In this document: positions 2,144 to 38,317 of the stretch, one piece after another
Numbering within the stretch: the first letter of the stretch is position 1
Layout: each line of letters opens with the position of its first letter
Assembly (NCBI GenBank): GCA_030295235.1
Contig: AP026152.1
Location: forward strand, 496,001 to 560,000
From: Fistulifera solaris
Taxonomy: Eukaryota
DNA: 64,000 nt
Reading direction: 5' to 3'
Translations under genes and position numbers: made by a program
Notes under the pieces: model-generated
The model's database searches: none
The model's input: the letters and a program-made list of their open reading frames with translations, nothing else
What the model was told of the DNA's origin: nothing

Positions 2144-3430
2144 CTATAAAAACCGAACATTCCCCGACTCATCAAAAGTCGCACTTGGCTTCAAAAGCCA
2201 GCTCTCTTCCGAAACTACTTGCACAAGATTTGGATCTTCCATTCGGTGACGCAACCGATCGGCTGCGGCCATTCCATCCACATCCAGGATGGTCAAGTAA
2301 GTATCTTCAAACGCTATTTTGGCGACCGCTCTGCAAGATAGCCGACACAACGTGTCAGAACACCAGCGACCCTTGCCATAAACTTAGCATATTACTTACA
2401 AGTTGTTGAAATCATTCGCGTCGTCTCCAAAGGGATCATCCAATTCGATGGCGACTAACTCCAATCCCACAAATCCGTACGTCAAAACAAAGGCTTGACA
2501 GCAGTGCGCTATCACGGAAGAGCTGTCCCCAATCAACACAAAGGGAACCGTAAAAACATAGAAAAACAGGAACATCCGTGCCATTTGCACCAGCGGAAAG
2601 GGCACTGGTGTCATCAAAAATCCTTGTATGCCATAATAACCTCCCATAAACACATCGACACTTTGCAATAATTTATTCTCTTGATTCACTTGTAAATATG
2701 CCGGATCCGCCAGTCGCAACAGATTCGAATGAATGGTTTTACGCAATAAGTACGCCACCCGCACGGGAACTCGCATGGAAACTTCCCACTCGGACCGTTC
2801 CGCATGCGCCCACCGAGCCCCTTGCGTCATGGCCTGCACAATTTCGTCCCGCTCGATGCCATTCAATTCGGGCACTTGCCACGCCGGACACTGTGTCGTG
2901 GGATAATTGATGACCGCCATGGCCGTCCGCAGCAAAAGCAAAGAACGATACGCCACTTCGTGACGCCACGCGACGGCACTCTCGTCGATGGCCGCAATGG
3001 AAAAGACGGTCGCCGTCTGCACCAATTCTCGTGTTTCGCGGTACATGACCCCCAAATAATTGCGTGCCTCATTGTACCGTCCCAAGGCAATGTTGACCCG
3101 CGACACTAACAAAAACGCCACCACAATCGAAAGGAAGGAATGTCCTTGATTGCTGATTTCGAGGAAATGTTTCGCATTTACGAGGCTTCGATCGAAACAT
3201 GTCAAGAGAAGCGTCAGTAAAACATTGAAGATGCAATACGGTAAGACCTGAGGACGTTATGCGATCATGAGAGTCAGGAAAGTCGTCGTTTAGCAAAAGA
3301 CGAACCTCCACAAACGCACCTTCAACCAAATACTGCCGTGCAATTGACTCAACACACTCCAGTGAGATTTGGAGTCATACGATACGGTATACGCGGCAAG
3401 TGATGGTTTATGCTTGCTTGAACTCGTCAT
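2144..3430 (-). CDS. Bestrophin-like (UPF0187/RFP-TM) anion channel
   Basis: RYNEAR, TPVPFPLVQ and GLELVAIELDDPFGDDANDF motifs. Introns ~3248-3319 and 2331-2399 join three ORF pieces in frame. Confidence 0.85.
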
Positions 3431-3514
3431 TGATATATTTGTTTGTGTTGCGTTTTGGTATGAAAATGAAGTTACTGGAGTATTATTTGCGTTTTGCGAC
3501 AATGACAACAAATA

Positions 3515-3838
3515 TTTTTTCGATCGGACCGAAATTCTGTGAACGACAAAATGTTTTGGATCATTACGAAAAGACAGTGAGCGTTCCAGAAATTCTGGAA
3601 AAATAATTTCTGGTCAAACAGAAATTCTGCGATGGTCCAGAAATTCTGGACCAGTTTTTCTCGATCCAACCGAAATGCTGTGCACGTTCCAGAAACGCTG
3701 CAAACGGTGTTTTGGATCATACAGAAACGTGAGCACGTTCCAGAAATTCTGGAAAATGTGTTTTGGTTATCCAACGAGAGAAAGTGCACGTTCCAGAAAT
3801 TTCAGGTCATACAGAAATTCTGCGATGGTCCAGAAATG
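3515..3838. repeat. Diverged short copy (~1.5 monomers) of the palindromic satellite at 17917-21290
   Basis: TCCAGAAATTCTGGA or variants at 3585, 3636, 3688, 3739, 3792 and 3829 (mostly 51-53 bp apart), interleaved with TTTTGGATCA..CGAAA boxes in the same subunit order as the large array. Confidence 0.92.
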
Positions 3839-3950
3839 ATCCTTATATACCAGGTACCGATAAAAACTGATGTGCACATATGCACGCATTCATTTCTTTT
3901 CATAGACTAAGAAAAGACTTAATCAAACAATATATTAATACACATTTTAT

Positions 3951-6587
3951 ATGACATCACATCCTCGAAAACAGATCCTTTTACTCCATGGCAATCGACA
4001 AACGGGGCAATTATTACTGGGGCGTATGGATCGATTCCGTCGGCGCCTCGCAAAGGAAGGTTTTGATTTGATCGCCCCCGATGCACCCTTCCCTCATCCC
4101 GAACAGGAACTCTTACGAATGTGGTGGGATCGTCAGAATGATTCGTATGAGGGGATTCATCAATCGATACAGTTACTGCAAGAAATATGGCTCGGACAAC
4201 AATTTGTCGGAATGATTGGATTTTCACAAGGAGCTCGTTTCGTCGAACTTTTGTTGCGATGGCATTTTCAAAATCCCGAGACGTCCGGCTTTTCGGGTCT
4301 CCAATTCGGAATCATGATTGCCGGATATGACGCACCTCTTCCGACCAACTGGTGTCTTTCGACAAATCACCAGCAGCTAGTGCAAATACCCACACTCCAT
4401 GTGATGGGATTACAGGATGAGCTCGTACCTCCCGAGAAAAGTCGAAAGGCGGCTACGTACTTTCACAATCCACAATTTCTGGAGCACGAAGGAGGTCATC
4501 ATGTACCGGTGCAAAGTCCGCGAGTCACAGCCTATGTGGAATTCATTCAAAACGCACTGCAACAATCAACGACACCCGAAGAAACCATTTCTACTCTCAT
4601 GCCCGACCCAGAAATAGCCGAATTGCAACGGGATGAGCTAGAAGCACTGCAAGCAATATTTCCAGAAGAATTTACTTTGCCAGACGGACTACCGCAATAT
4701 CCTATTACATTTCAAATAGCATTACCACAAACGGAGGAAGGATGGTGGCCTCCACATCCCGTTGCACTCGAGTTTACGTTTCCTCCTCAATATCCAACAG
4801 AAAGCATGCCCATCATTAATCTCCTTCACAACAACAATGTCATGGAATTTTCATCATTACAGAAAGAGCGATGTATGCAGGCAATGCATCATGCTTGTCA
4901 GCTCGAAGAAGGGATGCCTAGTGTCATGTCGTGTGTATATGCGGTCAAGGAATTGTTCGAATCGGGTGAGCTCGCGACGGCTACACATCCAGGTGCAATC
5001 GGCGAAACAGCCAGCGATCATCAAAATGACGAAACGCATGTAGAAGGGAATACAGAGAACGTCTTTCTTAGCACATGCTCCGCAGAACGGATACAGGCTT
5101 GCATCGACGAAGGATTAGAAATAGCCGAGAAAGTATTGCAAAAAGCAGCGAATGACATCGATAATATCATGGACAAAAAGGAGGACACTATCGATTGACG
5201 CTGGGACTCGTCGGGAAACCTTCGGCCGGAAAATCGACGTTCTTCAATGCCGCCACGGGATTTGCACGACAGCGTGGTGACAACGAAAGCTCCTTGGGAG
5301 GCGCCACGATGGCATCGCATCCATTTACGACCATTGACGCCAATATTGGGTACTGTCTCGTCCCGGCTCCAGCAGGAAGCTGTCCGGAAGAAGATTACAC
5401 TGGTGACCAAATCATTGGGTGCACACACGGCCGTGACAGTCAAGGCCGCCGACTGATCCCGGTTCTGCTGAAAGATGTAGCAGGTTTAGTGCCAGGGGCC
5501 TACAAGGGACGTGGTCGTGGTAACAAGTTTTTGAATGATTTGACGGATGCACACGTTCTCATTCACATTTTAGATGCCAGTGGTACATCCGATGAAGGAG
5601 GAAACGCGCTGGGAGAAGACTTCGACACCGGCTCCAATGGGGCTTCACATCCGCTTCATGATCTCGAATTTATCAGAAAAGAGTTAATTGAATGGGTTTA
5701 TTCGAATGTGATACAAAAGTGGGAGTCGATTCGGAGGAAAGGAAAAACGAAACTTTCGGATATGTTCAGCGGATACGGGCAGACAGAAGGCGTGACGGCG
5801 GCAGTCATTGGAGAGGTGGAGTCGTTCATGACTGCGTCGATTGGACAAGCTTATTCTTTCGACGATTTGAGCAAGTGGGATAGCGGTGATTTGCACCGTT
5901 TAGTGTCGGCATTTTTAGGTGTTCGATTCCCAGTTGTCTTGGCCTTGAATAAGATGGACCTTCCCTCAAGCAAAGAGAAGATTCGGGAGGTTCAGGAAGC
6001 TCTTCCAATTCATGGAGCACACATTGGAGTTCCCTTATCGGCAAATCAGGAAATGATTTTCGTGAAATCAACTATCGAAAGAGTTTTAGTGCGCGACTCG
6101 CGTCCAGCTACGCTACTTGAAGCAAACTCTCCCCCCTCTCGGAGTGTGGCAATGTCTAAATGAAGCAGTATTCTTGACAAACCCAATGCTTGTTTTTCCC
6201 GTCTCTGACTTTTCAACACTTTCGCCTTTGCCTGGCTTGAGAAAAATTGCTATAGAAAATTCCTCGCTACCGAGCTCTGGAATGATTAGCTGCTTGGTGA
6301 CAGCTGGTGGGAAGGCTCCGACACATTGGAATGCAGAAGATCAATTGTATCGTCCAGCAGCGTCCGGAATCTCGCTTCGTGACGTGATTGTTATGAAGCC
6401 CGGTTCGACTGTCGAAGATTTATTTTTTGTTTTGAAGCGATTAGGCGCCTTTGGAGGAGAGTTTGTGAGGGCGGAAGGAATATACGCAATAGGAGATTCT
6501 CCCAAGCAAGTTCCAAAGGGAAGAATGCTGGCTAAAGATATCCGCATCATTAAAATCATGACCAATAAAAAGGCATCTTGGCAATGA
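3951..6587 (+). CDS. Probable fusion: FSH1 serine hydrolase + RWD domain + Obg-family (Ygr210-like) GTPase
   Basis: LLHG, GFSQG, D, GGHH (FSH1); ELEALQAIF..FPPQYP (RWD); GKPSAGKST, HPFTT, DVAGLVPGA..GRGRGNKFL, NKMD (GTPase). Three overlapping ORFs joined by frameshifts at ~5175 (A run) and ~6130 (C run). Confidence 0.75.
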
Positions 6588-9420: not shown

Positions 9421-9960
9421 TGTGCGGTGTCTGTGAATAACAAACAGGCGTTCACTCCGTAGACTTGTAAAAATTCTGCAGAATACTCATGGAGGATATG
9501 GACGAACTAGGTTCTGTTAGAGGACCTCTTGGAGTGAGTGGCATCAATGGCTCTAGCTAAATCGTGGAACCAGTTTTTTTGTGGCGCGCTCTTTTTTTCC
9601 CGCAGAAGAAAATGCGGGGCAAAAGAAGCAAATGTTGCTTTCCGTTGTAGTTTTGAATCTGTCCGTTGATTTCTACGTCTTGATATTGCAATATAGTTCT
9701 TTTGTCCGTTGGTATAAGCTGATCTCTATCTATGCAAAGTACTGTATGTAAGTCGTTTGAATGATCCACTCGTTCCATTGGCGCGCACCGTTATAATTCC
9801 TCTCTTTGTTTTGCGTGGCGCGAGAGACCAATGTTTGCAACTGCACACAAAAAGAGTGCAAAACAACCACCATAAACTTATTGTCAAAAAGGAATGACAT
9901 TTTCGTCTGTTCAATTACAATTTACTTGATTGGTATTATCGAGAAAGGCAATAAATAAAA

Positions 9961-12587
9961 ATGCTGCGGAAGTTTAGTCTGTTGACTTGTTTAACTGCAT
10001 TCGCAACACTCTTCGAGCAAAGCAATGCTGAACCTTGTGTGAATCCAGCGTACGAGGATATTTACACTTGCACCGACCCGGAAGTGATGCTCGCGGATCT
10101 GACGATTCAATGTGATCCGGCGACGTGTTTATGGAATTTGAACGCTTTCAATCCGGGGCAACCGCCCGAGCCGTGTGCGGCGATCTTACTTCTCGAACAG
10201 CAAATCGCCGATCTTCCGGATTTGCTCGAACCCTGTTTGTGGTGGGAAATGTTGTATGGAGATCTCGGCTATCTTTTGCCTCAGCCGGCAGTCGTCGTCC
10301 CCAGTCCCAATCCGTCGCCTTTGGGCGATCTATCGATGGCGCCTACCTTGGTCGGTGAGTCCCTTTCTTGCGACTGTAATTATGAAAGTTACAAACTTCT
10401 TCTTCTGTCTCACCTCGTACGTTGTTTTTGTGTCAAAGAATCTGATACACCTTCTGTCGACTATACGGTGGGTCCGTCGTATTCTTTACTGGATACTTAT
10501 CCGCCTTCATCCATCGCCGTCGACAAAGATGTGACGCCGAGTCCGAGTCGCGTCGGGAAACTTTCGATTCCGTTGCAAAGCATGCTGTTGACCTTTGTGT
10601 TTGAACGTTATAGTGGCTTTCGACTGCGCCGTCGTCTGAACGAAAACAGCTTACTTGCCACGGACGAGTCACGGGACGCACTGATGAAAGTCACCCGCGA
10701 GCACTTGATGGCCAATATTCCCCAAGTCGTGGACGCGGATTTGACCATGAGTCGGGTCGATTCGTCCGATGAAAACATGGAGACTTTGCTGTTGATGGGC
10801 ACATTGTACTTTGCCGCCGAAGCCGCCGCGGAAGATCGATTGCCCGATCTCAGTCCCACCAGTGTGCGGCGACAAGTGGAAGACGTCTTTGACGACAATG
10901 ATTCCGTTCTGCGGTTCATTCACGCACTGCGAGAAACCGATCAAGCCGCGTTCCAAGACATTGTCTTGGTGTATCCCGGTATTGTCTCGCCGGATTCTGA
11001 TCTTCAAAGTACATCCAACGACGAGGAAGAAAGTTTCTGGGAATCGTTCTTCTTCAACTGGCAGAACCCCGTGTGGATTGTTGTAGCGGCCGGTATTTCC
11101 GCCGCTCTCTTGGGATTGTGTGCCGTGCTCGGCGTCACCTGCTACGTTCGTGCGGAGCGACGCAAGGAACTCGCCCATCACCAGCTGGCCACTCGAAAGT
11201 CGGACGACACGTCCAAGACCGCCGGAGACAGAAACCTATACAATGTGGAAGAGAGCTTGCACGAGGACGACATTAGTATGAATGGTCAGAGCGAAATTGG
11301 ATATCAAGAAAGTGAAGTTACTTCCGTTTACTCGTACCTTGACAACAACAATACCATGCTGGACGATCAATCGTTCTCTGTGGCACCGTCCTATACGTTC
11401 CCTGGACCGGAATACGATGATAACCGATCCGTTATGTGGAGTGTCATTCATGACGCCAAGAAGAATGATATTTTAGACGATTTGGACAGTATCGCTGGCG
11501 TATCACTTGCGACGAGACAGACCACTGCAGGAAATCGTTCGGTGGTCCGCGAGCGCCAGTTAAGCGTTGATAGCGACGACGATGTTTTCTCACTCTTGAG
11601 TCAGAACGGCGGCCCCTCCCCGTCTGAAACGAAACGAAAAAGTGCAACACCAACATTACAAGATAATCCTGCCAGCTCCGAGAAAGCCGCCGCACATGGT
11701 GCGGCAAGTAAAACGAGCCCCGAATCTATTTCGGGTGCTTCGCAAGCTTCACGGGAGTCACTAAGCAAGCTTTCCAAATTGGTGACTGGATTCCGATCCA
11801 AAAATAGCAGCAGCACCAAAGTGTCGCCCAAGAACTATCAGCAGCTGGATGATTCGGATGGCTCCCACCACAGCTGGGACAAGGAGCTGGGCATTCAGCC
11901 CTCACCGGACGATCTCGATGAAGACAGTGTGTTTATGGATGATTCGGAAGAAGATGAAACGGTCGCGTCGCATCTTGCTCCTCTTTCATCCATTCAAAGA
12001 ATCTCATCCGGAGGAGTGAATGACGACAGCGACGCATCTTCAGACGAAAACGCCGATGCCCCAAATGATGACAATAATTCAGTTGGCTCAAGTGCTTCCC
12101 ATGGACAAGAGGTTGAACCGGCTCAATTTGTTGTTCCTAACAGTGATACAATCGACACAGGATACCTAGCAACGTACAGCGAAGACACAACTCATTCTGA
12201 CGGAAAAAGAGTACATCATCCGAAAAAGAGAACATCAGCTCGGAAACAGCTCTTGATGGAGATTTGAATAATGTTGAAAACACTTCTGATGAAGCACAGA
12301 ATGGCACGGAGACGAATAGCGACAATCCTGAACAAGAACGGCCCGACGAGTTAAGTGCGCCGCCCCTGACTGAGAAGATCGAGTGCTCGGATAACATACA
12401 AATTTCGGATTCCGATACGGGCAATTCCAGTACAGAGTTAGCCGAAAAAGAGAAGATCGACCTTGACCAGTTACCGAAAGAGCATTCGCCGGAGGAAGAG
12501 GCACCGGTCGTCCTTAATGACACTAAGCCTCCTGACCTCGTAGTTGAAGACGACGTACCTGCGATATACACACTGGCATCGTTTTGA
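9961..12587 (+). CDS. Type I membrane protein: signal peptide, Cys-rich N-terminus, RxL motif, single TM, long acidic/Ser-rich tail
   Basis: 768-aa ORF plus overlapping acidic ORF 12264-12587 (probable frameshift ~12200-12230). Probable in-frame intron near 10355-10438 (GTGAGT donor). Confidence 0.65.
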
Positions 12588-12693: not shown

Positions 12694-14433
12694 TTAAATA
12701 TTGTCTTCACGACGCAATCCAGGAATGCTCCTTGACTTGGATGTCAATGAACTGTTTCTTGTCGACTTCGAATCGGAACTTTTCTTACTCCTCGACGACC
12801 CAGTGGAAGCGTCGGATTCTGACGGACCTTCTCTGTCAGAGTAATGATCAGGTAATACTAGAGCAAGGTCATCTAATTGCTGATCCTGCCAACGACGTCT
12901 CTGCTCCGCGTAGTCATCATCTCCAGCAGTTGATCCTACGTCATGACTCGTTGCGCTAACCGACCATACTGGGCTGGCCGGAGCCGTAGGAAGTTTGGGT
13001 TTTGATTCCAGTATCTGCCTAGGAATGTGAGCAAAGAGCTCGAACTCTGGATATTCTTTACTCAGTTCCGATCTTTCTTGATCAAGACAAGTCAAGGCAC
13101 CAGAAGCAACCAGACCATCTTCCAGACGGCCGACGCTTTCGTCATCTGTGTCATCATCAATAACAAAATTCGATTCGCGTGGCTTTGCACCAAGTCTATT
13201 AACGTGCAAGAAAGGCTGATGGGACCGAACAAAGTTGCTACCAAAGCTTTTGTCGCTGTACGAAAATCCATCCAGTGAACTTGTCTCCATTTGTCGTGCC
13301 TGTTCTTCCTCTCGTTTTCGTCGAAGATGCAGTGCGGCGGGCTTAATGCCACCCGACACAGTCGACGATACTGAGCTATCAGAGTACGAAGAGGAGCTCT
13401 TGGAGCCAGAAAGCGAACCCAACACCGTCTTGATGTTCTTTCGGAGCTCACGCCTTGAGATCAGTACAACGGCCACGAGAGCGAAAAACATGATAGCTCC
13501 ACTGGCCAACGCAGCGTAAAGAACAGTGTTGTTACCAGACTTCTTGCCATTCGAAGAGCTTACAGCAGGTTGATACTTATCGCCTGTCTCACTCCGAGGT
13601 ATATCTTCGGGCAAACTGGTGAAAAGTTGAGCATCTTTGATCTTGAGACCCTTGGCGCTCAAACGCCGTTTCAATCGTGTCAAATGAGTTCCCGAAAAGA
13701 ATCGTTCGACCAGTTTCGTTGCTTTATTGCTCGAAAACTGGGCGATTTCATCCATATCGTAGCTGGTTACGTAAAAGTCAACGTCCACATCGAAGTACAT
13801 GGTCATGAGGGGATGTCCGTCTACCGACGTCAGGTGATCGTATTCATGATAGAAAATGAGGGATAACTCAAAGCTGTCCAAGATATCTCCTCCGTACGTA
13901 TTCATATAAGTTCTCATGAGAGATTCTGTGGCTTGGAATATAATTTGCTCCGATTGGAGAGGATCAAAATCACCTTTCAGTTGAATCGTTCTCGGTGCTG
14001 CGGCAACCGTAGCCTTTTGTAGAGTCGGTCGGTCGACCACCAGGACCTCCTCCTCGTCTTCTTCTTCGTCCGCTATGGCGGAAAGCGTCGTGTATGCAGT
14101 AGGACTCGGAGTGGGTCTCGATGTGGGAGACGATTTGGGAGATTTGGACTCTCCTTTCTTTCTCGCTTCGCTGGCGACAGTGGGGGATGGCGTGCCACTG
14201 TCCGAACTTCGTTTCCCCACGGGTTCGAAACCGGAACCAGTCCAAGCACTGCTCGTGACCTCATCGCCTACAAATATAGAAGAAAATGACTTTTTTCGCT
14301 TGGTGCGATGCCCGGAGGTTGTTGACGACACCCCTTGATGGAACACTCCGTGTTGTTGTTGCGCGTTCGTGGTCACCCAAGTCGCCGCAAATAGTACGCC
14401 GAACCACCAAACGGAATGAAGAACGGATTTCAT
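12694..14433 (-). CDS. Type I membrane protein: signal peptide, SPT-rich linker, luminal domain, single TM, Ser/Asp-rich tail
   Basis: Intact 579-aa ORF; TM VLYAALASGAIMFFALVAVVLI followed by RR. Confidence 0.75.
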   Translation of the reverse strand: MKSVLHSVWWFGVLFAATWVTTNAQQQHGVFHQGVSSTTSGHRTKRKKSFSSIFVGDEVTSSAWTGSGFEPVGKRSSDSGTPSPTVASEARKKGESKSPKSSPTSRPTPSPTAYTTLSAIADEEEDEEEVLVVDRPTLQKATVAAAPRTIQLKGDFDPLQSEQIIFQATESLMRTYMNTYGGDILDSFELSLIFYHEYDHLTSVDGHPLMTMYFDVDVDFYVTSYDMDEIAQFSSNKATKLVERFFSGTHLTRLKRRLSAKGLKIKDAQLFTSLPEDIPRSETGDKYQPAVSSSNGKKSGNNTVLYAALASGAIMFFALVAVVLISRRELRKNIKTVLGSLSGSKSSSSYSDSSVSSTVSGGIKPAALHLRRKREEEQARQMETSSLDGFSYSDKSFGSNFVRSHQPFLHVNRLGAKPRESNFVIDDDTDDESVGRLEDGLVASGALTCLDQERSELSKEYPEFELFAHIPRQILESKPKLPTAPASPVWSVSATSHDVGSTAGDDDYAEQRRRWQDQQLDDLALVLPDHYSDREGPSESDASTGSSRSKKSSDSKSTRNSSLTSKSRSIPGLRREDNI

Positions 14434-14938
14434 AGTCTATCTATACTGGTTTTGCTGACTTTCTTTTGGTTGCCTGCTTATGCATTGATTCGTTTCAAAT
14501 GGATGGGTTGTTGTGTTTTGGTGAAATGGAATGGATGGTTGTTTCCAAAAAGTGAGCGCGTTGACCGTTGGCCGTTGAGAAGTGGAGGAGTGCGCACACC
14601 GATTGGAGGGAGAACCCGGTCTACTATAAAGTTGATACATCAAAACAAGTTAGAAAACGCGGTACGACCATCATTAATACTGAGCACCGCATACTACACA
14701 AACCGTTTTTAGAACCGCGAACACCAGAGAACATGAAAAAATGGCGCGAAAAAAATGGGCTCGAGCAGAAAGAAAGAAAATGAGCATCATCATTCTTCAT
14801 TTTCGACGATGACAAAACCGTGTGCGGTCGACCAATAACACCCCTGACGCCTCTGCGCTCATTACAAGCCGTCTATTGTTGTTCTACTGTATTTGATTCA
14901 GTGACATTACGCCAATATAATACTGCTCACCATTTGTC

Positions 14939-16461: not shown

Positions 16462-17700
16462 TTACCGTGGCGGTTTCTTGCTCCACATCCAAGCAAAGCT
16501 TTCCGGTCCAAGAAAGGCGTTCGCCAAACAAGCCGATACGATCAATGCACCTCCTAATGCATCGGACGGCGAAAGTGATTGACCTAGAAACACAGCAGCA
16601 AAAAGAGCGGCCCAGAGAGGCTCAGATGCCAATATGACCGAAGCTTCTGACGGATTGATTCGGCCCAGTGCCATAAGTTCCACCCAAAAGGTCAGTGAAG
16701 TCGATATAAGTCCAGTCCAGACAATAGCACCTGCTACCAAAGCCATGTCAGGATTCAACAACAAACCAGGCAACGCTAAGGTGTTCTGCCAGTCGGGATT
16801 TGTAAACATCCATCCATCCGCCAGTGACCATAGCATGCTCACAAACGACGTCGTGGCCACCAAGGTCGCCGTAACAGGAAGAGCTTGATCCGGCTCTTTC
16901 GCCAGCATCCGCGAAGTCCAAAACACCCCTGTCCCAAATCCCACTGCTTGTAACAAGGCCAATACATCACCTGCAGTGATACTGAACGACGCATTCTGCA
17001 ATGTATCGGCGGTGAGTTCGAGTGAAGCGACCCCCGCCATACACAAAATGGCGGCTAGCCAGGTTTGCGGAGATTCCTTGAGACCCATGGGCTTTTTGTC
17101 TATCCACAGTTCCAACAATGGACACCAAAGGACTGTAGCCGAACCCAGAAAAGACACACGAGCCGGATCGATTTCAACCAACGCCAACGACTGGGTAATG
17201 TAGCCCGCGGCCGTGAAACAGCCGCACAGGACGGCAGGTATCCGCAAGGACGGTGTGAGACGAGGAACAAAGGGCGAAAGTGCCAAGGCCGCTAATACCA
17301 TTCGTCCCGTCGTGGCGGCCGAAGCGGGTAACTGTTCGTTCATAATGGATCCCAAAGGAAAATTTGTCGCGTACGAAGCTGCCAGGAGTGCGAGGATGAT
17401 GCGAGGACCCAAATAGGTCGAGAGAATCGTTTCCCAGAGTGAATTGTCAGGATTGGCGTCGTGCTTCGGTGTCTCCATATTTCTCAATGTAGAAGATAAT
17501 TGAGATTGACGATTGTAGAACATTAAATTCTCGTCTACGCCATATTGTTTTCGTTTGCGAGGGAACGGCAGAGTAGAGCGAAAGATCGGCAACGGAGTAA
17601 TTCTAGACTGATGATCTATGATGAAAGCTTCGCTCGGCGTACCCCACCAAAGCGCTGTAAGGATCACACTGTATGGAATAAGACTGGTTATCATCGTCAT
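16462..17700 (-). CDS. EamA/DMT superfamily transporter, probably plastid-targeted
   Basis: Two 5-TM halves; GDVLALLQAVGFG, ASVILASEPLWAALFA. Presequence SEA-FII. Confidence 0.85.
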   Translation of the reverse strand: MTMITSLIPYSVILTALWWGTPSEAFIIDHQSRITPLPIFRSTLPFPRKRKQYGVDENLMFYNRQSQLSSTLRNMETPKHDANPDNSLWETILSTYLGPRIILALLAASYATNFPLGSIMNEQLPASAATTGRMVLAALALSPFVPRLTPSLRIPAVLCGCFTAAGYITQSLALVEIDPARVSFLGSATVLWCPLLELWIDKKPMGLKESPQTWLAAILCMAGVASLELTADTLQNASFSITAGDVLALLQAVGFGTGVFWTSRMLAKEPDQALPVTATLVATTSFVSMLWSLADGWMFTNPDWQNTLALPGLLLNPDMALVAGAIVWTGLISTSLTFWVELMALGRINPSEASVILASEPLWAALFAAVFLGQSLSPSDALGGALIVSACLANAFLGPESFAWMWSKKPPR

Positions 17701-17916
17701 GGTAGAAAAGAACTTGTTTTCAGCAGTTTGGTTTTTATGAGAGTGCCATGAAGCTTTGCATTGCGAAAGCGAAGGTCTTCGAACTTCGGGTGGGTGCTTG
17801 ATGGCGACGAGGGTATCTTTTGGCTATTAATTATCGGACATTGGAAGTACTATATCTCAAATAGTACACGGGATACCGAACCGATCTACATTCGATCCAA
17901 GACTCCTCCTCCTCCT

Positions 17917-20900
17917 AAATTCTGTGTTGGTCCAGAAATTCTGGACCAGTCCTTTCGATCCTACCGAAATGCTGGGCATGTTCCAGAAAATCTGGACACC
18001 GTGTTTTGGATCATAACAAAAATGTGCACATTCCAAAAATTCTGGAAACTTTGCTTTGGATCGTAACGAAGGCAACTGCAAATTCCAGAAATTTTGGAAA
18101 TGTTAGTCCGAATTGTTACTGATCATACAGAAATTCTGTGATGGTCCAGAAATTCTGGACCAGTCCTTTCGATCCTACCGAAATGCTGTGCATTGTTCCA
18201 GAACTTCTGGACACCGTGTTTTGGATCAATGCGAAAGAGAATGCGCGTTCCAGAAATTCTGGAAAAGTTGTTTTGGATCACAACGAAAGAGACTGGGCGT
18301 TCCAGAAATTCTGGAAATGTAATTTCGCACAATTTCTGATCACACAGGAATTCTGTGATGGTCCAGAAATTCTGGACCAGTCCTTTCGATCCTACCGAAA
18401 TGCTGTGCATTGTTCCAGAACTTCTGGACACCGTGTTTTGGATCAATGCGAAAGAGAATGCGCGTTCCAGAAATTCTGGAAAAGTTGTTTTGGATCACAA
18501 CGAAAGAGACTGGGCGTTCCAGAAATTCTGGAAATGTAATTTCGCACAATTTCTGATCACACAGGAATTCTGTGGTGGTCCAGAAATTCTGGACCAGTCC
18601 TTTCGATCCTACCGAAATGCTGTGCATTGTTCCAGAACTTCTGGACACCGTGTTTTGGATCAATGCGAAAGAGAATGCGCGTTCCAGAAATTCTGGAAAA
18701 GTTGTTTTGGATCACAACGAAAGAGACTGGGCGTTCCAGAAATTCTGGAAAAGTAATGTCGCACAATTTTCTGATCACACAGGAATTCTGTGGTGGTCCA
18801 GAAATTCTGGACCAGTCCTTTCGATCCTACCGAAATGCTGTGCATTGTTCCAGAACTTCTGGACACCGTGTTTTGGATCATAACGAAAAATGTGCACATT
18901 CCAAAAATTCTGGAAACTTTGCTTTGGATCGTAACGAAGGCAACTGCAAATTCCAGAAATTCTGGAAATGTTAGTCCGAATTATTACTGATCATACTGAA
19001 ATTCTGTGATGGTCCAGAAATTCTGGACCAGTCCTTTCGATCCTACCGAAATGCTGTGCATTGTTCCAGAACTTCTGGACACCGTATTTTGGATCAATGC
19101 GAAAGAGAATGCGCGTTCCAGAAATTCTGGAAAAGTTGTTTTGGATCACAACGAAAGAGACTGGGCGTTCCAGAAATTCTGGAAATGTAATTTCGCACAA
19201 TTTTCTGATCACACAGGAATTCTGTGGTGGTCCAGAAATTCTGGACCAGTCCTTTCGATCCTACCGAAATGCTGTGCATTGTTCCAGAACTTCTGGACAC
19301 CGTGTTTTGGATCAATGCGAAAGAGAATGCGCGTTCCAGAAATTCTGGAAAAGTTGTTTTGGATCACAACGAAAGAGACTGGGCGTTCCAGAAATTCTGG
19401 AAAAGTAATGTCGCACAATTTTCTGATCACACAGGAATTCTGTGGTGGTCCAGAAATTCTGGACCAGTCCTTTCGATCCTACCGAAATGCTGTGCATTGT
19501 TCCAGAACTTCTGGACACCGTGTTTTGGATCAATGCGAAAGAGAATGCGCGTTCCAGAAATTCTGGAAAAGTTGTTTTGGATCACAACGAAAGAGACTGG
19601 GCGTTCCAGAAATTCTGGAAAAGTAATGTCGCACAATTTTCTGATCACACAGGAATTCTGTGGTGGTCCAGATATTCTGGACCAGTCCTTTCGATCCTAC
19701 CGAAATGCTGTGCATTGTTCCAGAAAATCTGGACACCGTGTTTTGGATCATAACGAAAAATGTGCACATTCCAAAAATTCTGGAAACTTTGCTTTGGATC
19801 GTAACGAAGGCAACTGCAAATTCCAGAAATTCTGGAAATGTTAGTCCGAATTATTACTGATCATACAGAAATTCTGTGATGGTCCAGAAATTCTGGACCA
19901 GTCCTTTCGATCCTACCGAAATGCTGTGCATTGTTCCAGAACTTCTGGACACCGTGTTTTGGATCAATGCGAAAGAGAATGCGCGTTCCAGAAATTCTGG
20001 AAAAGTTGTTTTGGATCACAACGAAAGAGACTGGGCGTTCCAGAAATTCTGGAAATGTAATTTCGCACAATTTTCTGATCACACAGGAATTCTGTGGTGG
20101 TCCAGAAATTCTGTGGTGGTCCAGAAATTCTGGACCAGTCCTTTCGATCCTACCGAAATGCTGTGCATTGTTCCAGAACTTCTGGACACCGTGTTTTGGA
20201 TCAATGCGAAAGAGAATGCGCGTTCCAGAAATTCTGGAAAAGTTGTTTTGGATCACAACGAAAGAGACTGGGCGTTCCAGAAATTCTGGAAATGTAATGT
20301 CGCACAATTTTCTGATCACACAGGAATTCTGTGGTGGTCCAGATATTCTGGACCAGTCCTTTCGATCCTACCGAAATGCTGTGCATTGTTCCAGAAAATC
20401 TGGACACCGTGTTTTGGATCATAACGAAAAATGTGCACATTCCAAAAATTCTGGAAACTTTGCTTTGGATCGTAACGAAGGCAACTGCAAATTCCAGAAA
20501 TTCTGGAAATGTTAGTCCGAATTATTACTGATCATACAGAAATTCTGTGATGGTCCAGAAATTCTGGACCAGTCCTTTCGATCCTACCGAAATGCTGTGC
20601 ATTGTTCCAGAACTTCTGGACACCGTGTTTTGGATCAATGCGAAAGAGAATGCGCGTTCCAGAAATTCTGGAAAAGTTGTTTTGGATCACAACGAAAGAG
20701 ACTGGGCGTTCCAGAAATTCTGGAAATGTAATTTCGCACAATTTCTGATCACACAGGAATTCTGTGGTGGTCCAGAAATTCTGGACCAGTCCTTTCGATC
20801 CTACCGAAATGCTGTGCATTGTTCCAGAACTTCTGGACACCGTGTTTTGGATCAATGCGAAAGAGAATGCGCGTTCCAGAAATTCTGGAAAAGTTGTTTT

Positions 20901-21290
20901 GGATCACAACGAAAGAGACTGGGCGTTCCAGAAATTCTGGAAAAGTAATGTCGCACAATTTTCTGATCACACAGGAATTCTGTGGTGGTCCAGAAATTCT
21001 GGACCAGTCCTTTCGATCCTACCGAAATGCTGTGCATTGTTCCAGAACTTCTGGACACCGTGTTTTGGATCAATGCGAAAGAGAATGCGCGTTCCAGAAA
21101 TTCTGGAAAAGTTGTTTTGGATCACAACGAAAGAGACTGGGCGTTCCAGAAATTCTGGAAATGTAATTTCGCACAATTTTCTGATCACACAGAAATTCTG
21201 TGATGGTCCAGAAATTCTGGACCAGTCCTTTCGATCCTACCGAAATGCTGTGCATTGTTCCAGAACTTCTGGACACCGTGTTTTGGATCT
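17917..21290. repeat. Higher-order tandem satellite: ~15.5 monomers of ~217 bp built from 52-bp palindrome-bearing subunits
   Basis: Palindromes at 18145, 18197, 18249, 18301, 18362 (52+52+52+61=217). Type A monomers start ~18123, 18340, 18557, 18991, 19209, 19427, 19861, ~20098, 20532, 20749, 20967; type B at ~17917, 18775, 19645, 20316. Confidence 0.98.
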
Positions 21291-21528
21291 AACAAAAAAT
21301 GTTCCTTGGTCGAAACGGCCACCACTTTGTGTCGTATAGGTATAACTGTACTTCGTAGACTGCCAGTATGAATGAGACTGTTGTTTTTTATGTGTTGTCT
21401 CTTTTCTAACCGGTAATAACGACGAAAACAAAAAATGACGACGATAACGATTAACGATCAACGCAATGAAAAAAATAATCGAGCCGTGCATAATCATTAA
21501 CGAGTCAATAATCAAGTGACTTCGAACC

Positions 21529-21896
21529 ATGGGATTCTCCTAGTAAGTAATAAAGCAGATATTGCGGAAATTTTGTTGCGAATGACTTCAACTAACACTT
21601 GTCTTATATAAACAACACAGTCTGTTAGATCCACAAAATCGCGAAGTCGGTCAAAACTCGGCATCGCTACGCTCCTTATGTTTACTTTACCGATAATAAC
21701 GTACTATGTCAGTGAGCGCTACTTTGCCGACAAGCAGCATCCCGATAATTGGGCCGCACTTTCGGCCATCATCATGACCAACCTGATTGTAGGAGGATAT
21801 TGTTACGCGGCCTATGTCGAAGATGCCGAGGAAAAAGCCGCGGAAGAGAAGGGTGTACCACCGCGTGTTGGAATATACAAAGAACGCACCGATTGA
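21529..21896 (+). CDS. VMA21-like V-ATPase assembly factor
   Basis: Two-TM small protein MFTLPIITYY...AALSAIIMTNLIVGGYCYAAYVED. Probable short first exon and intron ~21543-21620; start uncertain. Confidence 0.7.
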
Positions 21897-22085
21897 CATG
21901 ACAGAAAAACAACAATTTGCGCCATTCTACTACCGCACATATAGATTGGCTTGTCTTACACGAATGGTATTACGTAGAAAACCACCCCACGGGCATCCGC
22001 CATTTCCAGGATTGATACACGACGATTCTGGCGTTTCATTAATACAACTTTATTACTTCTTAAACACAATCTTTTCAATACACAA

Positions 22086-23101
22086 TTACTGCGCCGCCTC
22101 AGGATCATATTGGACCATTCGCATAGTTTTGATGGCCACATAATGTTGCATGCGCTTGTAGCTTCCTTCTTGTACGGCCGATTTGTGGATGCGATCGGCT
22201 ACGGCAAACCCTTGGACGACTTTGGCAAAACAGGGATCGGCCTCGGTGGGATCTTCGTAACTTCCTTGTCCGCCCGGTCCGTGATTGCGCGTATTGTCCT
22301 GCATGCTAATGTAGAAATCGGGTCCACCCGGTCGTCCGGCGTACCCTAATGTGTATTTGACGTGCGGATACTTTTCGGAATACTCTTGAAACAACACACT
22401 CTCCACTCCGCTTTCTTTGAAATGCTTGACCAAGCCCGCATTGGGTGGGGTCAAAAGTTTGGCGCTGGGCCTCCTTGTATGACGTGACCGGCATTGCGAT
22501 GAAACGAGCATCCATCATACAGTCGACGATCGACTTGATCTAAGAACCACAGTACAGTGTGGGGCATGTCTTCTTCGGAAGCGAGCTCGATCGTAATATG
22601 GTCCGTGTCGGGGCCATCTCCGTAAATATTCGAGCTGGGATCGAACGCGACTTCAATGTCCACGTAATGAGGTCCTGCGCCGTACTTGGCCAATAGCCTT
22701 TCTTTGGACCATTTTGCAAATTGTCCTTCATTTTTTGTTTGAATTTGAGTAAATTGTCAATGCGCTTCTGCATCGCCTCGGTCGATGGCGTATTTCCAGC
22801 GACGACCGGCGCTTGGAGCTTTCGTTCCAGGTTTGCCTTTTCTTCCGATAAGGCCATGAGTCTGCTGTTGAGACTCGAAAGTTGGTTCTCTGCCGTAGAA
22901 TCATTGGAAAGATAATAGTACACTCCACCGCCTCCCAAAGCCGCCGAGCCCGCCAAGGCTACCAGCAAAGAAGCGTGGCTCCGGCGGCACTGGAGGTTCC
23001 CCGTCGCTTCTTCTTTTCCGACGACGCAGGGGGAGCGATAAATCTCGGGCAGGAGATTTATTACTGCTGCTACGGTGCTTGAGACGATCGGTTGTTTCCA
23101 T
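22086..23101 (-). CDS. Membrane-anchored cyclophilin-like (PPIase fold) protein
   Basis: MPHTV..FLDQV..LYDGCSFHRNAGHVIQGG, FQEYS..PH..YTLGYAGRPGGPDFYI, DPCFAKVV. N-terminal TM and coiled coil; several frameshifts. Confidence 0.75.
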
Positions 23102-32262: not shown

Positions 32263-32663
32263 ACAAAGGAAATCACGACGTTCTTCAAGAGTCAACTAAA
32301 AGGATGCGTGGACAGTTGGAGGGTGCGCGGGCCGTCAACGCTAAAGTAACCAACAGCTGGTATCTCTTAATCGTTTGTACTAAAGTCTCTCTAGAGATAA
32401 CATCTAATGATAATAAGCGACTACGTATATTAAGTAACGATACTAGCCTGAGCATGATGATTTATAAATGGTACAATACACGACCATATACCACATTCCA
32501 TCATCCAACCAAAGGAACACAGCTGATCCCGAAAACCGGCTTACACAGCGTAGAACAAAGACACAGATCTACACACCGGCACACATCTCGGTAACCAACA
32601 CCTTCAATTGTTTCAAGAAAGACACAGATAGATGGCCAGGTAGACTCACATCACATCAAATAC

Positions 32664-34641
32664 TTATTTTCTCCAGCCGCCATCGCAGTAGCTGACGCAG
32701 ACGTATTCACATCCATCGCCAGTTGCGAGACCTCGGAACTTGCGGCCGTACTGCCAGAAGCACCAGATTCACCCGTGGGGCATATCTTCTCGTATTCGCA
32801 GCACTCTAATGAACCTTCGCCGCTCTTGCTACCACTCTTGCTACCGGAATCAGGGCAATAACAATCGCAACTGCAGACAACATCGTCGGTGGGGCAGTGG
32901 TGTCCCTTGCCCTTTCCTTTACCGTGGTGATGTCCCTTGCCTTTACCCTTTCCTTTGCCGCCCTTGCCCTTTCCTTTACCCTTGCCGCTCTTCTTCAAGA
33001 TACGACCGCCACGCTTGCCGGCGTAATCGTCATCAGCAGCGTCGTCGTCTTCTTCAACGACGTAGTCGTCACCATCATCGTCAGTCGGGTGTTCGCCACC
33101 AACGCAGCACTCGCAGTCACAGTCGCAACCGGCACCGTCGGTGTAAGAGTGAGTGGGGTAGCAGACACCAGTAGTGTCATCGTCTTCCACAATCATAGCG
33201 TCGTCGAAGTCCGGGCAGGGTTCAATGCAGACGTATCCACATCCAGCTCCCTTGCTCGAGCCACCGTCGCACTCATAAGAATACTTCAAGCAGCACTCAT
33301 CGTCACTGATGGCGACAGGAGGAGATACAGGGGGTTGGACGGGTGGTCGAACCGGAGGAGACACAGGGGTCGAACCGGTGGGCTCACAGGAGCAGTGGGG
33401 ACAATCTCGTCATCGTCGCAGAAGTCAACGCAGACGTAGTAGCACTCTTCACCGCTCTTGGATCCGTTGTACTCGCAGACCTCTTCATATCCACAGCATT
33501 CGATCTCATCATCAGTGTGGTCGTCATCGTAGTAACCACCCTTTCCTTTGCCTTTACCCTTGGAGCTTCCCTTGCCCTTTCCTTTACCCTTTCCTTTGCC
33601 TTCAGGAGTAGGAGGAGAGACAGGAGGACGGACGGGGGGCGACACAGGAGGTCGCACAGGCGGCGAAACAGGAACAGTTGGAATAATATCCGGGGTAGGA
33701 GGAGATACCGGAGGTCGAACAGGTGGCGCAACCGGAACAGTTGGAATAATATCCGGGGTAGGAGGAGATACCGGAGGTCGAACAGGTGGCGCAACCGGAA
33801 CAGTTGGAATAATATCCGGGGTAGGAGGAGATACCGGAGGTCGAACAGGTGGCGCAACCGGAACAGTTGGAATGATATCCGGAGTAGGAGGCTCCACCGG
33901 GGGTCTGACCGGAGGCGGAACAGGAGGTCGCACAGGCGGCGTAACCGGGACCGTCGGAACGATATCCGGGGTAGGAGGCGAAACCGGAGGACGGACCGGA
34001 GGCGAAACAGGAGGACTGACCGGAGGAGACACTGGCGGCGAAACCGGTGGAGGAACCGGGGGTGTCACAGGAACTGTCGGAATGATATCCGGGGTAGGTG
34101 CCGGAACAGGCGCAGGGACGGGCACTGGAAACGGAGGTGTCACTGGAACTGTCGGAATGATATCCGGAGTCGGTGCTGGCACCGGAGCAGGGACGGGCAC
34201 AGGGACCGGAACAGGCACGGGGACCGGAACTGGCGCCGGAACCGGTACAGGCACTGGAACCGGCACAGGGACCGGAACGGGCACGGGAACAGGTCTTGTG
34301 GGGACAATATCCGGAGTAGGAGCAGGAGGAATGGGAGCATCCGTCGGTGCCTCGCCGGTTGGTTCAGGGCTGGGCGCGTTTTCGGGGAATTCGCAATCGC
34401 ATACTAGCTCATCACCAACCTCGTCACAGAAACAGCATTCGTCCTCACAAGCGGAGCAATCTTGGAAGCAGGCAGGATGAGGAGCGTCGGGGGACGGCTT
34501 CGGGGGGCATTTCTCGTAGCAGCAGGCGCTGAGGACGCTCAGCTCGCGAGAACGAGTTTTGTCGCAGCCAGCTTTCGCAGGCTTCGCGCTGACAGCAGAC
34601 ACCACTGAGAGCAGTGCCAAAGTCACTGAAAGAAACTTCAT
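32664..34641 (-). CDS. Secreted Pro/Val-rich, Cys-rich protein with GKGK blocks (candidate cell-wall/biosilica protein), paralog 1
   Basis: Signal peptide, (PV)n, PPVS/PPVR repeats, ECC modules. Frameshifts ~33370 and ~32765; restored C-terminus [18 protein letters not shown]. Confidence 0.85.
33660..33900. repeat. Coding tandem repeat, 63-bp unit ([21 protein letters not shown])
   Basis: GGAACAGTTGGAAT recurs at 63-bp spacing, about 4 copies. Confidence 0.9.
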
Positions 34642-35324
34642 TGTGCAAGATACTCAATACAGTACTTGAATGTCCACGTAATGAGTTAATAACGCGTCTG
34701 TAATTTTTTGTGAGGATGCAAAGGAGGTGCAAAGTGAGAGAGATGCGACTCGAAAGGAGTGCTGACGAGGCGTGCGACACGAACTGTCCAACGGAGTGTC
34801 CGCCCGACTCAAGCACTTAGGGGTAAGTCGACGCAAAAAAATCGCATGGTACTAAAAATTTCGCACGGTCGGTGAGAATTTCCCGTGCCAAAGTCGACCG
34901 AGGTGCACCATGGCCGTTTTGGCTAGAGGATGCGTCGCTTTCCCGAATCAATGAAAAGAAACTCCATCAGGGGTAATAGCTGATAGAAAGCCTGAAGTCG
35001 CCTTCAACAACCCTGTTTGTCAAGCGAGTCGTGCCGTTGCTGGATGGTCGTTCGAACCGATCAACGAGAAGCTGTTTTACCGAAGCTCGAGCCTTTTGTT
35101 GTCGCTTTGATTGCTGCTTCTTACGCTCCGACAGCCATGACGAAGCGATCCATGGTGATTATTCCCAAGCATTTCGACGACGACAAGGGAAGAGGCTTAG
35201 CACACCAGCCAAAATTGCGATACGAATTCTAATGCCCGATGACTCAAACCTCCCCGCGAACTTTCGATGCGATTGCCCAAAACACACAACGAAATTCATA
35301 CAAACATTCCGTCGTCTTCTAAGC

Positions 35325-35660: not shown

Positions 35661-36726
35661 CATCACGACAAAAAAGTCCCACGTATGTCGGATGGAGAGA
35701 GCCGGCCGGCATTACTACTCAACTAGTGTGTGGAGTAGTCTCCGTTGTGCATTTCCGTTAGCTAGAGTTCATGAGGTCGTGGCTCCCAGCTCACCGCTCA
35801 CCGGTGACCGGTGGAAGGGTGGAAGGTGAAATAATCAAAAACAACACCAAGCACCACGAAGTCGGCATTCACACAAAAACTCGAAACAAGGTACCCGGTA
35901 CCTAGTATCGAACTCGAAATTTGAATGCCGTCACTTCCACTATGTTCGATGATTCCATACAATGGTTAACAAATACTGGTAAAGTGCTTCAGAGGTGCTA
36001 ACGTAACTTTTCAAAGGATGTATTGCACTTCAGCATTTTTCTTTCTATCTAACCTTACGGACGACTAGTGACAGTGGCTCAAAAAGACCGAAGTGCTGAA
36101 GGTTGCTGGGAAAAAATGAATATTTTGGCCGCAAAACGGGAGGCAATATCTTTTTTTAAGCAAGGAACCACCCTTACGGCTCGCATGGTCAGTAGTCAAG
36201 TTCCTTCGGTCTTGAAAAAAAAAACAATGCTTTCTGCAAAAAGCTGTCTCTTTCAACAAGCGACTGATCCAAAGCATTACTTGCTTGAGGACGCCTAAAA
36301 TGATATTTGCTACGAAAGATGCGATTCGCTAAGTAGTAGAGACAAGCTTGTAGCGGTGCAGCAGTAGCGTTCGCAGATTTGCAGAATAGTCGGGTTTCTT
36401 GTCTTTTGACGCCAGTACGGACAAGATGCTATGATAGGTTCAGATGCCGGGGTTCATGCTCATGCCGCTGGCAGAGTTCAGCATGTACAGCTCGAGCATC
36501 ATAAAGGTTGCTGATGTCGTGAGTTCGAGCTAAGGAAAGAATCATTATCTACTAGAATGAATGAAAACACAATTTTCTATTTAACAGTAATCAGCGATTA
36601 CAAATAAAGCTCGTACTTGTGAGTTATTGCGCCAGCAACAAAGTAAACAAGACCAAATGCGAGTGCTTAAGGGTGCCTTTTAACAGATAGATGGCTAGGA
36701 AGATTGACTCGGATCATATGGAGTTT

Positions 36727-37938
36727 TTAGTTTCTCCAGCCGCCGTCGCAGTAGCTGACGCAGACATATTCACATCCGTCTCCGGTTCCAAGCTTTCGAC
36801 CGTGGGAGTGTGTGGGGCAGATCTTCTCGTATTCGCAGCACTCCTCGGCACTGTCGCTGCTCTCGTTAGGACAATAGCAATCACAGCTGCACACAACATC
36901 GTCGGTAGGGCAGTGGTGTCCCTTGCCCTTTCCTTTGCCGCCCTTGCCTTTGCTTGACCCTTTACCGCCCTTGCCTTTGCTCGATCCTTTACCGCCCTTG
37001 CCCTTGCCTTTACTACTGTGTTCGCCGCCTGTGCAGCACTCGCAATCACAGTCGCAACCATCGCTGTCGGTGTAAGAGTGTGCGGGGAAGCAAATGTCCA
37101 CGGGGACGTAATCGTCCTCTTCCACAATGTCTGCCACAGGGGGTTTGACAGGTGGGGTCACAGGAGCAGTGGGAACAATCTCCTCATCGTCGCAGTAGTC
37201 GACACAGACGTAGTAGCACTCTTCGCCGCTCTTGGATCCGTTGTGCTCGCAAACCTCCTCGTATCCGCAGCACTCGATTTCAGGAACAGGCGGAGACACC
37301 GGAGGTCGGACGGGAGGAGAAACCGGAGGTCGGATAGGAGGAGAAACCGGAGGTCGGACGGGAGGAGAAACAGGGGGTCGCACCGGCGGCGAAACCGGAA
37401 CAGTTGGAATGATATCGGGGGTAGGAGGCGAGACCGGAGGAGAAACAGGAGGCGAGACCGGAGGACTGACCGGAGGAGACACCGGGGGACTGACCGGGGG
37501 GAGAAACAGGCGGCGAAACAGGAACAGGAACAGGCACCGGAGGTCTCACTGGAACGGTTGGGATAATGTCCGGAGTTGGTGCTGGTACAGGCGCAGGGAC
37601 TGGTACAGGGACCGGAACAGGCACCGGAACGGGCACGGGGACTGGAGCCGGTACAGGGACAGGAACAGGCACCGGGACGGGGACGATTTCGCATTCGCAA
37701 TCGCAGTTGAGCTCGTCACCAACCTCGGAACAGATGCAGCATTCGTCTTCGCAGGCAGAGCAATCCTCGAAACAAGCAGGATGAGGAGCGTCGGGGGTCG
37801 GTTTCGGGGGCATCGCTGGTAGCAGCAGTTGTTGAGAGCACTTAAGTCCCGAGTAAGTTTGCGGCGGCAGTCATCGGGCTGTGCGCTGACAGCGGACAAC
37901 AGGGATAGCAGCGACACTGACGCTGAAAGGAACTTCAT
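36727..37938 (-). CDS. Secreted Pro/Val-rich, Cys-rich protein with GKGK blocks, paralog 2
   Basis: [19 protein letters not shown] signal; same modules as paralog 1; ends [15 protein letters not shown]. Frameshifts ~37810 and ~37500 (G runs). Confidence 0.85.
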
Positions 37939-38317
37939 CGGGAAGGACACTCAGTAGCAGATGCTTTGTTGGGAATCTTCTGCGTTGTAGACGACGAGAA
38001 AGAGATGTTTGGGTGAGAATAGTTCTTTGAGAGTGATAACAAGCTCAGAATGAGCCAAGCTAGACCATATGCACTGATCATTGCTGGATGGCAATTCGAT
38101 CGATCAATCCAGAAGCTGTTTTAACGGAATTTGGGTTTCCCCTTTTCGCTTCGTTTGCCGTAGTTGTCAGTGCCAACACATGAACTGAGTGCAAGCGAAA
38201 ATTCCGAACGTTCCATCATCAAGTATATTGCCCGATGGCTTAGCTTCCTCTTCGAACGGCCGATGCGATGATGCAAAACAAAAACAAAAGCCAAGAACAT
38301 TCTGCAGTCTTTCAGGC

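Follow-up and report, generated by a model that had tools for sequence, protein, structure and literature searches.

Why does a short perfect palindrome stay almost unchanged in a tandem repeat whose remaining letters drift? This question is raised by an array in the genome of the diatom Fistulifera solaris, where we analysed 64,000 nucleotides of contig AP026152.1 (positions 496,001 to 560,000; hereafter the window, from whose first letter all positions are counted). The array, called here array 1, spans 17918-21289, and its subunits open with the palindrome TCCAGAA-N-TTCTGGA (hereafter the box). A preliminary description, made from the letters alone, had regarded it as phased 52-bp units with two conserved boxes, either protein-binding sites or a template for hairpin RNAs, and not a neutral satellite. 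We propose, with moderate confidence, that array 1 belongs to a lineage-specific dispersed satellite which recently expanded at this place, and that its palindrome is probably a protein site acting on the whole family.

Organisation of the repeat

The tandem array was borne out where it had been noted: Tandem Repeats Finder reported a period of 217 bp with 15.4 copies, 90% matches and sub-periods of 51-52 bp. The periods are nested in three tiers of ~52, 217 and ~869 bp. The earlier reading of 52 bp as the repeat unit has to be replaced, because the actual unit is the 217-bp one, built of four subunits a-b-c-d with lengths of 52+52+52+61/62, that is 217/218 bp. The two monomer types A and B proposed earlier do exist as two kinds, but they are ~16% diverged versions of the 217-bp unit, a major (M) and a minor (m) one, which differ in 35 of 217 aligned cells and are interleaved as m-M-M-M. 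Along the array the units are ordered mMMM, mMMM, mMM and mMMM, followed by a partial unit; the third block has lost one M unit. Measured against the reference M unit, the eleven M units reach scores of 195-217 out of 217. The b subunit at 18849, in which an M-type box is joined to an m-type tail, is a recombinant of M and m. The four subunits align as paralogues, and their non-box cells within M differ far more often (136/255) than whole units differ from each other. Such recombinants, interleaved variants and nested periods form the signature of growth through unequal exchange or slippage, and array 1 most likely grew in this way.

Array 1 is non-coding: none of the three open reading frames tested in it (ORFs; 205, 181 and 95 aa) contains a Pfam family, and the unit length of 217 is not divisible by 3. 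With its head-to-tail non-coding copies, diverged subunits and high copy number it is a satellite with higher-order repeat structure. Classical satellites form long arrays of tens of kb or more in heterochromatin, whereas array 1 measures 3.4 kb, a second array 0.33 kb, and both lie between expressed-looking genes; by size the satellite is a short-array, minisatellite-scale one.

The second array (array 2) was detected with a profile of the 217-bp unit, and the family is thus not limited to 17917..21290. Array 2 comprises ~1.5 units, arranged c-d-a-b-c-d, with a d subunit of 51 bp and a degraded b box (3 mismatches). Since array 2 shares the a-b-c-d order with array 1 at ~81% identity, the four-subunit unit must be older than either array, array 2 being an old, short remnant. 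The box was absent from the ~30 other intergenic gaps of the window.

The palindrome and its spacing

Allowing at most one mismatch to TCCAGAAATTCTGGA, we found 62 boxes in array 1, 39 of them exact. In 13 of the 23 boxes with one mismatch only the free central base was altered (A to C), and hence 52/62 are perfect palindromes. The statement that the 15-bp palindrome stands at the start of every subunit holds for all 62 slots at this stringency. The 61 box-to-box spacings were 52 bp (41 cases), 51 (4), 50 (1), 61 (7), 62 (7) and 81 (1); the 52-bp spacing described earlier is correct for most subunits and fails for the d subunits with their 61-62 bp. Although 52 bp is close to five helical turns, the suggested five-turn phasing is arithmetic only, as neither the 61-62-bp subunit nor the 217-bp unit makes a whole number of turns.

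The variable segments behind the palindrome (ccagtcc, caccgtg, aaagttg and aactttg) were found exactly as described, and subunits a, b and c do follow the layout of palindrome, 7-nt variable segment, second box and ~12-nt variable segment. The second box, TTT(C/G)GATCnnnnCGAAA, is likewise present in a, b and c but not in d, which has kept only its GATC. Subunit d closes with another copy of the core palindrome, CAGAAATTCTG, positioned 19 bp ahead of the next box. There is one GATC per subunit, 64 in array 1. Digestion with Sau3AI, expected to yield fragments of ~50-60 bp, is predicted to give 63, of which 45 have 50-53 bp, 16 have 62-63 bp, one has 11 and one 69.

The palindrome extends beyond 15 bp in part of the subunits. 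Positions +/-8 are G...C in subunit a and T...A in c and d, resulting in dyads of 19 bp (in a, GGTCCAGAAATTCTGGACC) and 17 bp, respectively, while subunit b breaks the dyad. The word TTCNNGAANTTCNNGAA occurs 27 times in the window, always within the two arrays, against 0.00 occurrences expected from 100 shuffles.

Unequal conservation along the subunit

The preliminary description held that the boxes are far better kept than the segments between them. This was observed in every comparison within the arrays, for which subunit rows were taken by position, irrespective of whether they contained a box, and therefore without selection of rows within the two arrays. When 12 subunits were compared with their consensus, 7/180 cells differed in the box and 118/436 in the rest. 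The corresponding values were 4/60 and 31/157 between M and m, 4/60 and 48/159 between array 1 (M) and array 2, and 5/60 and 43/158 between array 1 (m) and array 2. Among the four subunits of M, 3/90 box cells differed in comparison to the 136/255 cells of the rest, and among those of array 2 the numbers were 9/90 and 103/224. The box was thus 3 to 16 times less different than the remaining subunit, with Fisher p-values from 0.02 to 7e-20, which overstate the evidence because the compared rows are related copies.

The edges of the conserved segment are sharp. Counted column by column, differences number 0-2 within the box (15 columns) and rise to 3-7 immediately outside it. Lesser conserved islands are TTT..GATC, A..GAAA and TG.G. 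Moreover, variant pieces of the family in public contigs have retained the box while the adjacent letters have changed. Sharp edges fit site-specific constraint better than conversion tracts spreading from the palindrome, and in every comparison available the box is under real constraint.

Copies elsewhere and the second form of the locus

Contigs from four sequencing runs were compared with positions 16800-22300; among the runs, X1 is a culture-like one from organism A and X2 comes from a wetland metagenome. We treated X1 as DNA, as it contains coding-to-intergenic contigs of similar depth (~16-19) and two haplotype-like forms. Contigs fitting the array numbered 430 in X1 and 455 in X2, of which 244 and 252, respectively, were less than 95% alike. 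Many of the variant spacers in these contigs adjoin intact boxes, for example other d-type spacers, 28-35 letters long, with ACAGAAATTCTG behind them. From the number and diversity of the contigs we conclude that the genome contains many further, diverged copies of the family in other places. Depth was not used for this conclusion: summed contig depth in the X1 array bins reached up to 852 in comparison to 16-52 in the flanks, which is not a copy number, and the bins without cover (19192-19559) carry no meaning.

The unique flanks (16800-17450 and 21530-22300) were present in both X1 and X2 in two forms, one identical to the window and the other ~10% different. Two such forms are consistent with a highly heterozygous or allopolyploid genome. 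In the window-identical form, the left junction of array 1 is bridged by X1 record 3 (17068-17946) and also by X2 record 11, and the right junction by X1 record 6 (21280-21893). The diverged form is represented by X1 record 4, a contig of 1,426 letters whose first 381 letters fit 17068-17448 (39 differences) and whose last 372 fit 21528-21893 (45 differences). Between the two fits it has 673 letters, whereas the window has 4,079, ~707 of them non-repeat. This difference in length implies that the array is probably missing from the second copy of the locus, where no more than about one unit would fit. An array apparently missing from one copy argues against an indispensable local function, and array 1 would seem to be dispensable at the locus.

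We also looked for relatives of the repeat outside the diatom. Scans for two boxes 30-50 bp apart gave a single match in metagenome contigs, an unrelated AT-rich contig with a 59-bp duplication, and the same kind of scan gave none in contigs of prokaryote genomes. In viral contigs the 17-mer occurred 25 times, always singly, and a hidden Markov model of the 217-bp unit fitted only around the seeded word, at no more than 18.5 bits. In the literature, keyword searches of open-access articles retrieved no paper with the box motif and, with preprint supplements excluded, none describing a nuclear satellite of diatoms that has such a conserved box.

Some of these matches have features of their own. 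In the AT-rich metagenome contig (L001, 1-120), the 59-bp direct duplication happens to include the 17-mer and stands beside long ORFs with a giant-virus-like composition; it has no relation to the repeat in the diatom. Among the viral contigs, two GC-rich phage ones that are related to each other (L018 and L004, 590-660 in each) carry the same 17-bp palindrome, followed 20 bp later by a similar one of the type TTCCAGC-TTT-TCTGGAA. The pair is located just upstream of a gene start, resembles two repressor operators, and is equally unrelated to the repeat.

Genomic setting

The features of the window are compiled in Table 1. The window is gene-dense, with long open frames and with Pfam families including RelA/SpoT, DUF1995, bestrophin, Nop and aldehyde dehydrogenase, among others. 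Array 1 occupies most of the 3,977-bp gap between the head-to-head EamA and VMA21-like genes. The best match of the EamA protein has 88% identity (P0001), and down to 50% identity all matches with an organism name are from diatoms (Seminavis, Stephanodiscus, Cyclotella, Thalassiosira, Cylindrotheca and others), which assigns the window to the nuclear genome of a diatom. A head-to-head gene gap is the location of both arrays, which is suggestive, the two cases being too few to weigh. Beyond the repeats, self-BLAST and nhmmer revealed no sequence common to the flanks of array 1 and array 2.

Table 1. Arrays, representative units and flanking genes in the window.
Feature	Position	Strand	Remarks
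Bestrophin-like open frame	2396..3256	-	5' side towards array 2
Array 2	3509..3843	.	~1.5 units, ~81% identical to array 1
FSH1 serine hydrolase / RWD gene	3951..5198	+	ATG at 3951, ~108 bp from right end of array 2
EamA-family transporter gene	16462..17700	-	ATG at 17700, 218 bp from left end of array 1; directed away from the array
Array 1	17918..21289	.	15.4 x 217-bp unit; 62 subunits, each opening with the box TCCAGAA-N-TTCTGGA
Major unit M, example	18362..18578	.	217 bp; a (52), b (52), c (52), d (61)
17-bp palindrome TTCCAGAAATTCTGGAA, example	18465..18481	.	subunit c
Third-tier unit m-M-M-M, example	18797..19666	.	870 bp; period ~869 bp
Minor unit m, example	19667..19882	.	216 bp; ~16% from M, 4 of 35 differences within boxes
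Local 19-bp repeat, 2.6 copies	20084..20132	.	at one d/a junction; stretches that unit to 237 bp
VMA21-like gene	21678..21896	+	Pfam E = 1.7e-9; ATG at 21678, 389 bp from right end of array 1; directed away from the array

Another tandem repeat (46553-47090; period 220, 2.4 copies, 98% identity), unrelated to the satellite, is also situated in a head-to-head gap, between a frame at 44941-46365 (-) and a short-chain dehydrogenase from 47114 (+). Its period is near the length of the 217-bp unit, possibly by coincidence. Most Tandem Repeats Finder rows at 32.9-37.7 kb are due to two paralogous minus-strand genes (32600-34700 and 36700-38000) for secreted proline-rich repeat proteins without a Pfam family; these begin with a segment resembling a signal peptide, contain long PV repeats and a KG run, are Cys-rich at the ends, and may be diatom cell-wall proteins. 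Open frames of 770, 580 and 600 aa at 9955-12267 (+), 12694-14436 (-) and 57025-58827 (+), respectively, have no Pfam family at E <= 0.001.

A proposed dispersed satellite with a candidate protein site

The observations can be arranged into the following history. An ancestral ~52-bp subunit would have been duplicated into a four-subunit unit of ~208-217 bp, which then spread to several sites of the genome. At the locus of array 1, a recent amplification by unequal exchange or replication slippage may have generated the 15 copies and the additional m-M-M-M period. Across the family the 15-bp palindrome has hardly changed while the rest drifted; the GATC box and the GAAA island have been kept as well, to a lesser degree. 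Most likely, a dimeric DNA-binding protein recognises the palindrome and acts on the repeat family as a whole, comparable to the role of the CENP-B box in other satellites. Alternatively, as a secondary possibility, the exchange machinery by which the repeats are homogenised may favour palindromes.

The repeat resembles the higher-order repeats of primate alpha satellite and the mouse minor satellite in having diverged monomers within near-identical higher-order units. In contrast to alpha satellite, the array is 3.4 kb long in a gene-dense region instead of megabases long at a centromere, its subunit has 52 and not 171 bp, and it is without centromere-like GC content. The CENP-B box is not known as a perfect palindrome, whereas the motif described here is one. 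As in alpha satellite, one short motif is kept (the 17-bp CENP-B box there, 15-17 bp here) and the rest varies; the CENP-B box is the binding site of a sequence-specific protein, the box here a putative site (PMC5615363, section 3.4.3.4). The same section of this review describes, as an established pattern, satellites whose monomers vary except for one conserved motif, and the choice offered earlier between a constrained array and a neutral satellite was for this reason a false one. As competing explanations the review names functional constraint, sequence features that homogenisation favours, and the persistence of shorter ancestral repeats as remnants; its classic case is the CENP-B box (PMC5615363, same section).

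Several points weigh against the interpretation as a dispersed satellite under constraint. The compared rows are copies related to each other and not independent lineages, and with no copy of the repeat found in other species (metagenome, prokaryote and viral contigs), long-term conservation is unsupported. The apparent absence of the array from the second copy is drawn from one short-read contig, whose 673 letters could hide up to about one unit, and no contig spans array 1, so that its exact copy number is provisional. Furthermore, the location of both arrays in head-to-head gaps could mean a promoter-related role rather than mere tolerance.

Alternative explanations

The last point leads to the possibility that the arrays are host regulatory DNA, namely stacks of sites for heat-shock factors (HSFs) acting as a copy-number-tunable bidirectional enhancer, as an insulator, or as a factor sink for the flanking genes. 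We regard this as unlikely, though slightly less so than the other alternatives. Tandem repeats in yeast promoters are known to tune expression; most of them are short, AT-rich, and work by excluding nucleosomes. Like them, the array stands between a gene and its upstream neighbour and is variable in copy number, apparently differing between alleles; unlike them, it is a hierarchical 217-bp repeat of a dispersed family. The regulatory explanation is supported by the position of both arrays between head-to-head genes, 108-389 bp from the start codons, although two of two such gaps are too few to tell from chance. Against it, the box is missing from all ~30 other intergenic gaps of the window, the neighbours (EamA, VMA21, bestrophin and FSH1) include no stress genes, and the second copy of the locus is apparently without the array.

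The connection to HSFs is a lead taken from motif resemblance. The STAT-type consensus is TTCnnnGAA; a reading of the box in these terms was rejected on inspection, as the spacing does not fit. The 17-bp palindrome can be written as TTC-ca-GAA-a-TTC-tg-GAA, two perfect TTCnnGAA units, of the kind that make up the dimeric core of a heat-shock element, joined by a gap of 1 nt in place of 2, and the retention of the dyad at +/-8 in a, c and d points in the same direction. The HSFs of another stramenopile, Phytophthora infestans, bind TTCTAGAA, TTCNGAA, GAATTC and TTCGAATTC in protein-binding arrays and electrophoretic mobility shift assays, and gaps of 0, 1 and 2 nt all occur among their sites (PMC11267843, HSF section). 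The canonical heat-shock element as given there has at least three contiguous inverted nGAAn units with 2-nt gaps (PMC11267843). In contrast, the box reads TTC-2-GAA-1-TTC-2-GAA and with its central gap of 1 nt is no canonical three-unit element, each half alone being a canonical TTCnnGAA dimer. Moreover, one diatom HSF has published CUT&Tag motifs, the top one of which is telomere-like and unlike the box (PMC11986044, in the part describing these motifs).

The narrower proposal, in which one of the expanded HSF family of diatoms recognises the palindrome and the arrays are HSF-bound satellites or copy-number-tunable bidirectional promoter modules, seems to us unlikely, slightly more so than a regulatory role as such. 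Human satellite III, a pericentromeric simple repeat, offers a comparison. It too is a repeat with GAA/TTC-type units of the kind recognised by heat-shock factor, and its transcription under heat shock is driven by HSF1 (PMC5615363, section 3.5.4). Here, unlike in satellite III, the likeness is one of motif alone, with a non-canonical 1-nt central gap.

The family might have arisen from a mobile element, for example a miniature inverted-repeat transposable element, a Helitron-like or a foldback element, or have been dispersed by one; this is about as improbable as the HSF-site proposal, and is compatible with the dispersed-satellite interpretation. The palindrome would then be a recognition or hairpin sequence and the arrays amplified element ends. 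This would account for a dispersed, multi-copy family with arrays of different ages in separate intergenic gaps, and for an array that is found in one copy of the locus and apparently missing from the other, as after an insertion; a perfect palindrome would be expected from two abutted terminal inverted repeats or from a rolling-circle hairpin. However, the flanks of the two arrays share nothing past the repeats, inspection by eye of the two available arrays disclosed neither terminal inverted repeats nor a target-site duplication, and none of the 21 large ORFs scanned contains a transposase domain.

That phased small RNAs or hairpin RNAs are made from the array as their template, a possibility considered in part by the preliminary description, appears very unlikely. 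The 217-nt unit does fold well below its shuffled versions (z = -6.6 on the plus and -5.6 on the minus strand). Nevertheless, the fold is alike on both strands, with boxes of different subunits pairing, as any repeated DNA palindromes would yield, and it is therefore no evidence for RNA. The variants of the box are uncompensated: of four kinds, two break the dyad and two give G-U on opposite strands. In addition, Rfam has no match in the window, and a 15-bp palindrome with a single central base makes a poor RNA hairpin.

An even more remote idea is that the array is a centromere or replication origin. It is a gene-free tandem repeat with a GC content of 42.5% in comparison to the window mean of 47.0%, and a preprint reports small repeated elements from 3/16 predicted centromeres of an allopolyploid diatom (10.1101/2021.11.10.468027, in its account of centromeres). 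In that account the diatom centromere signature is a cluster of 100-bp windows of at most 32% GC, once per chromosome, whereas no 100-bp window of the array falls to 32% (minimum 36%) and its GC resembles that of the other intergenic gaps (38-44%). The two arrays lie only 14 kb apart with many more copies apparently elsewhere, and the second copy of the locus is apparently without an array. The dispersed "centromere/ARS" (autonomously replicating sequence) motifs of Fistulifera solaris are, like the box, conserved, non-coding and recurrent along diatom chromosomes; unlike the box, they are described without tandem arrays in the part of that source concerned with them, and their sequence is unrelated, as judged from one 16-nt stretch (10.1101/2021.11.10.468027). 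This stretch, from one of the three motifs and the only one of them searched, had one match with 3 mismatches in the window against 1.28 expected. The centromere reading was rejected on GC content and multiplicity. Finally, an assembly artefact inflating the length or existence of the array is the least credible explanation. None of the public contigs reaches across the array, in which those assembled from short reads end. Against an artefact, X1 contigs identical to the window cross from unique DNA into the repeat at both junctions (at the left one an X2 contig does so too), X1 and X2 are both rich in the family, and an ordered m-M-M-M pattern with private variants is unlike a collapsed or inflated assembly.

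Implications

Nuclear satellite families of diatoms have hardly been described. If the repeat is a satellite only, it is of practical use: the family should be masked during annotation, and it marks how rapidly the two genome copies have come to differ in structure. If the box is a protein site, it would provide a handle on one of the many uncharacterised DNA-binding proteins of diatoms, and the array-bearing and array-less copies of one gene pair would represent a natural experiment on how a satellite embedded in a promoter affects expression. Should the HSF proposal be true, these two copies would respond differently to stress, and HSF-bound arrays would be the diatom counterpart of the stress bodies of human satellite III, in a group of organisms whose HSF family is hugely expanded.

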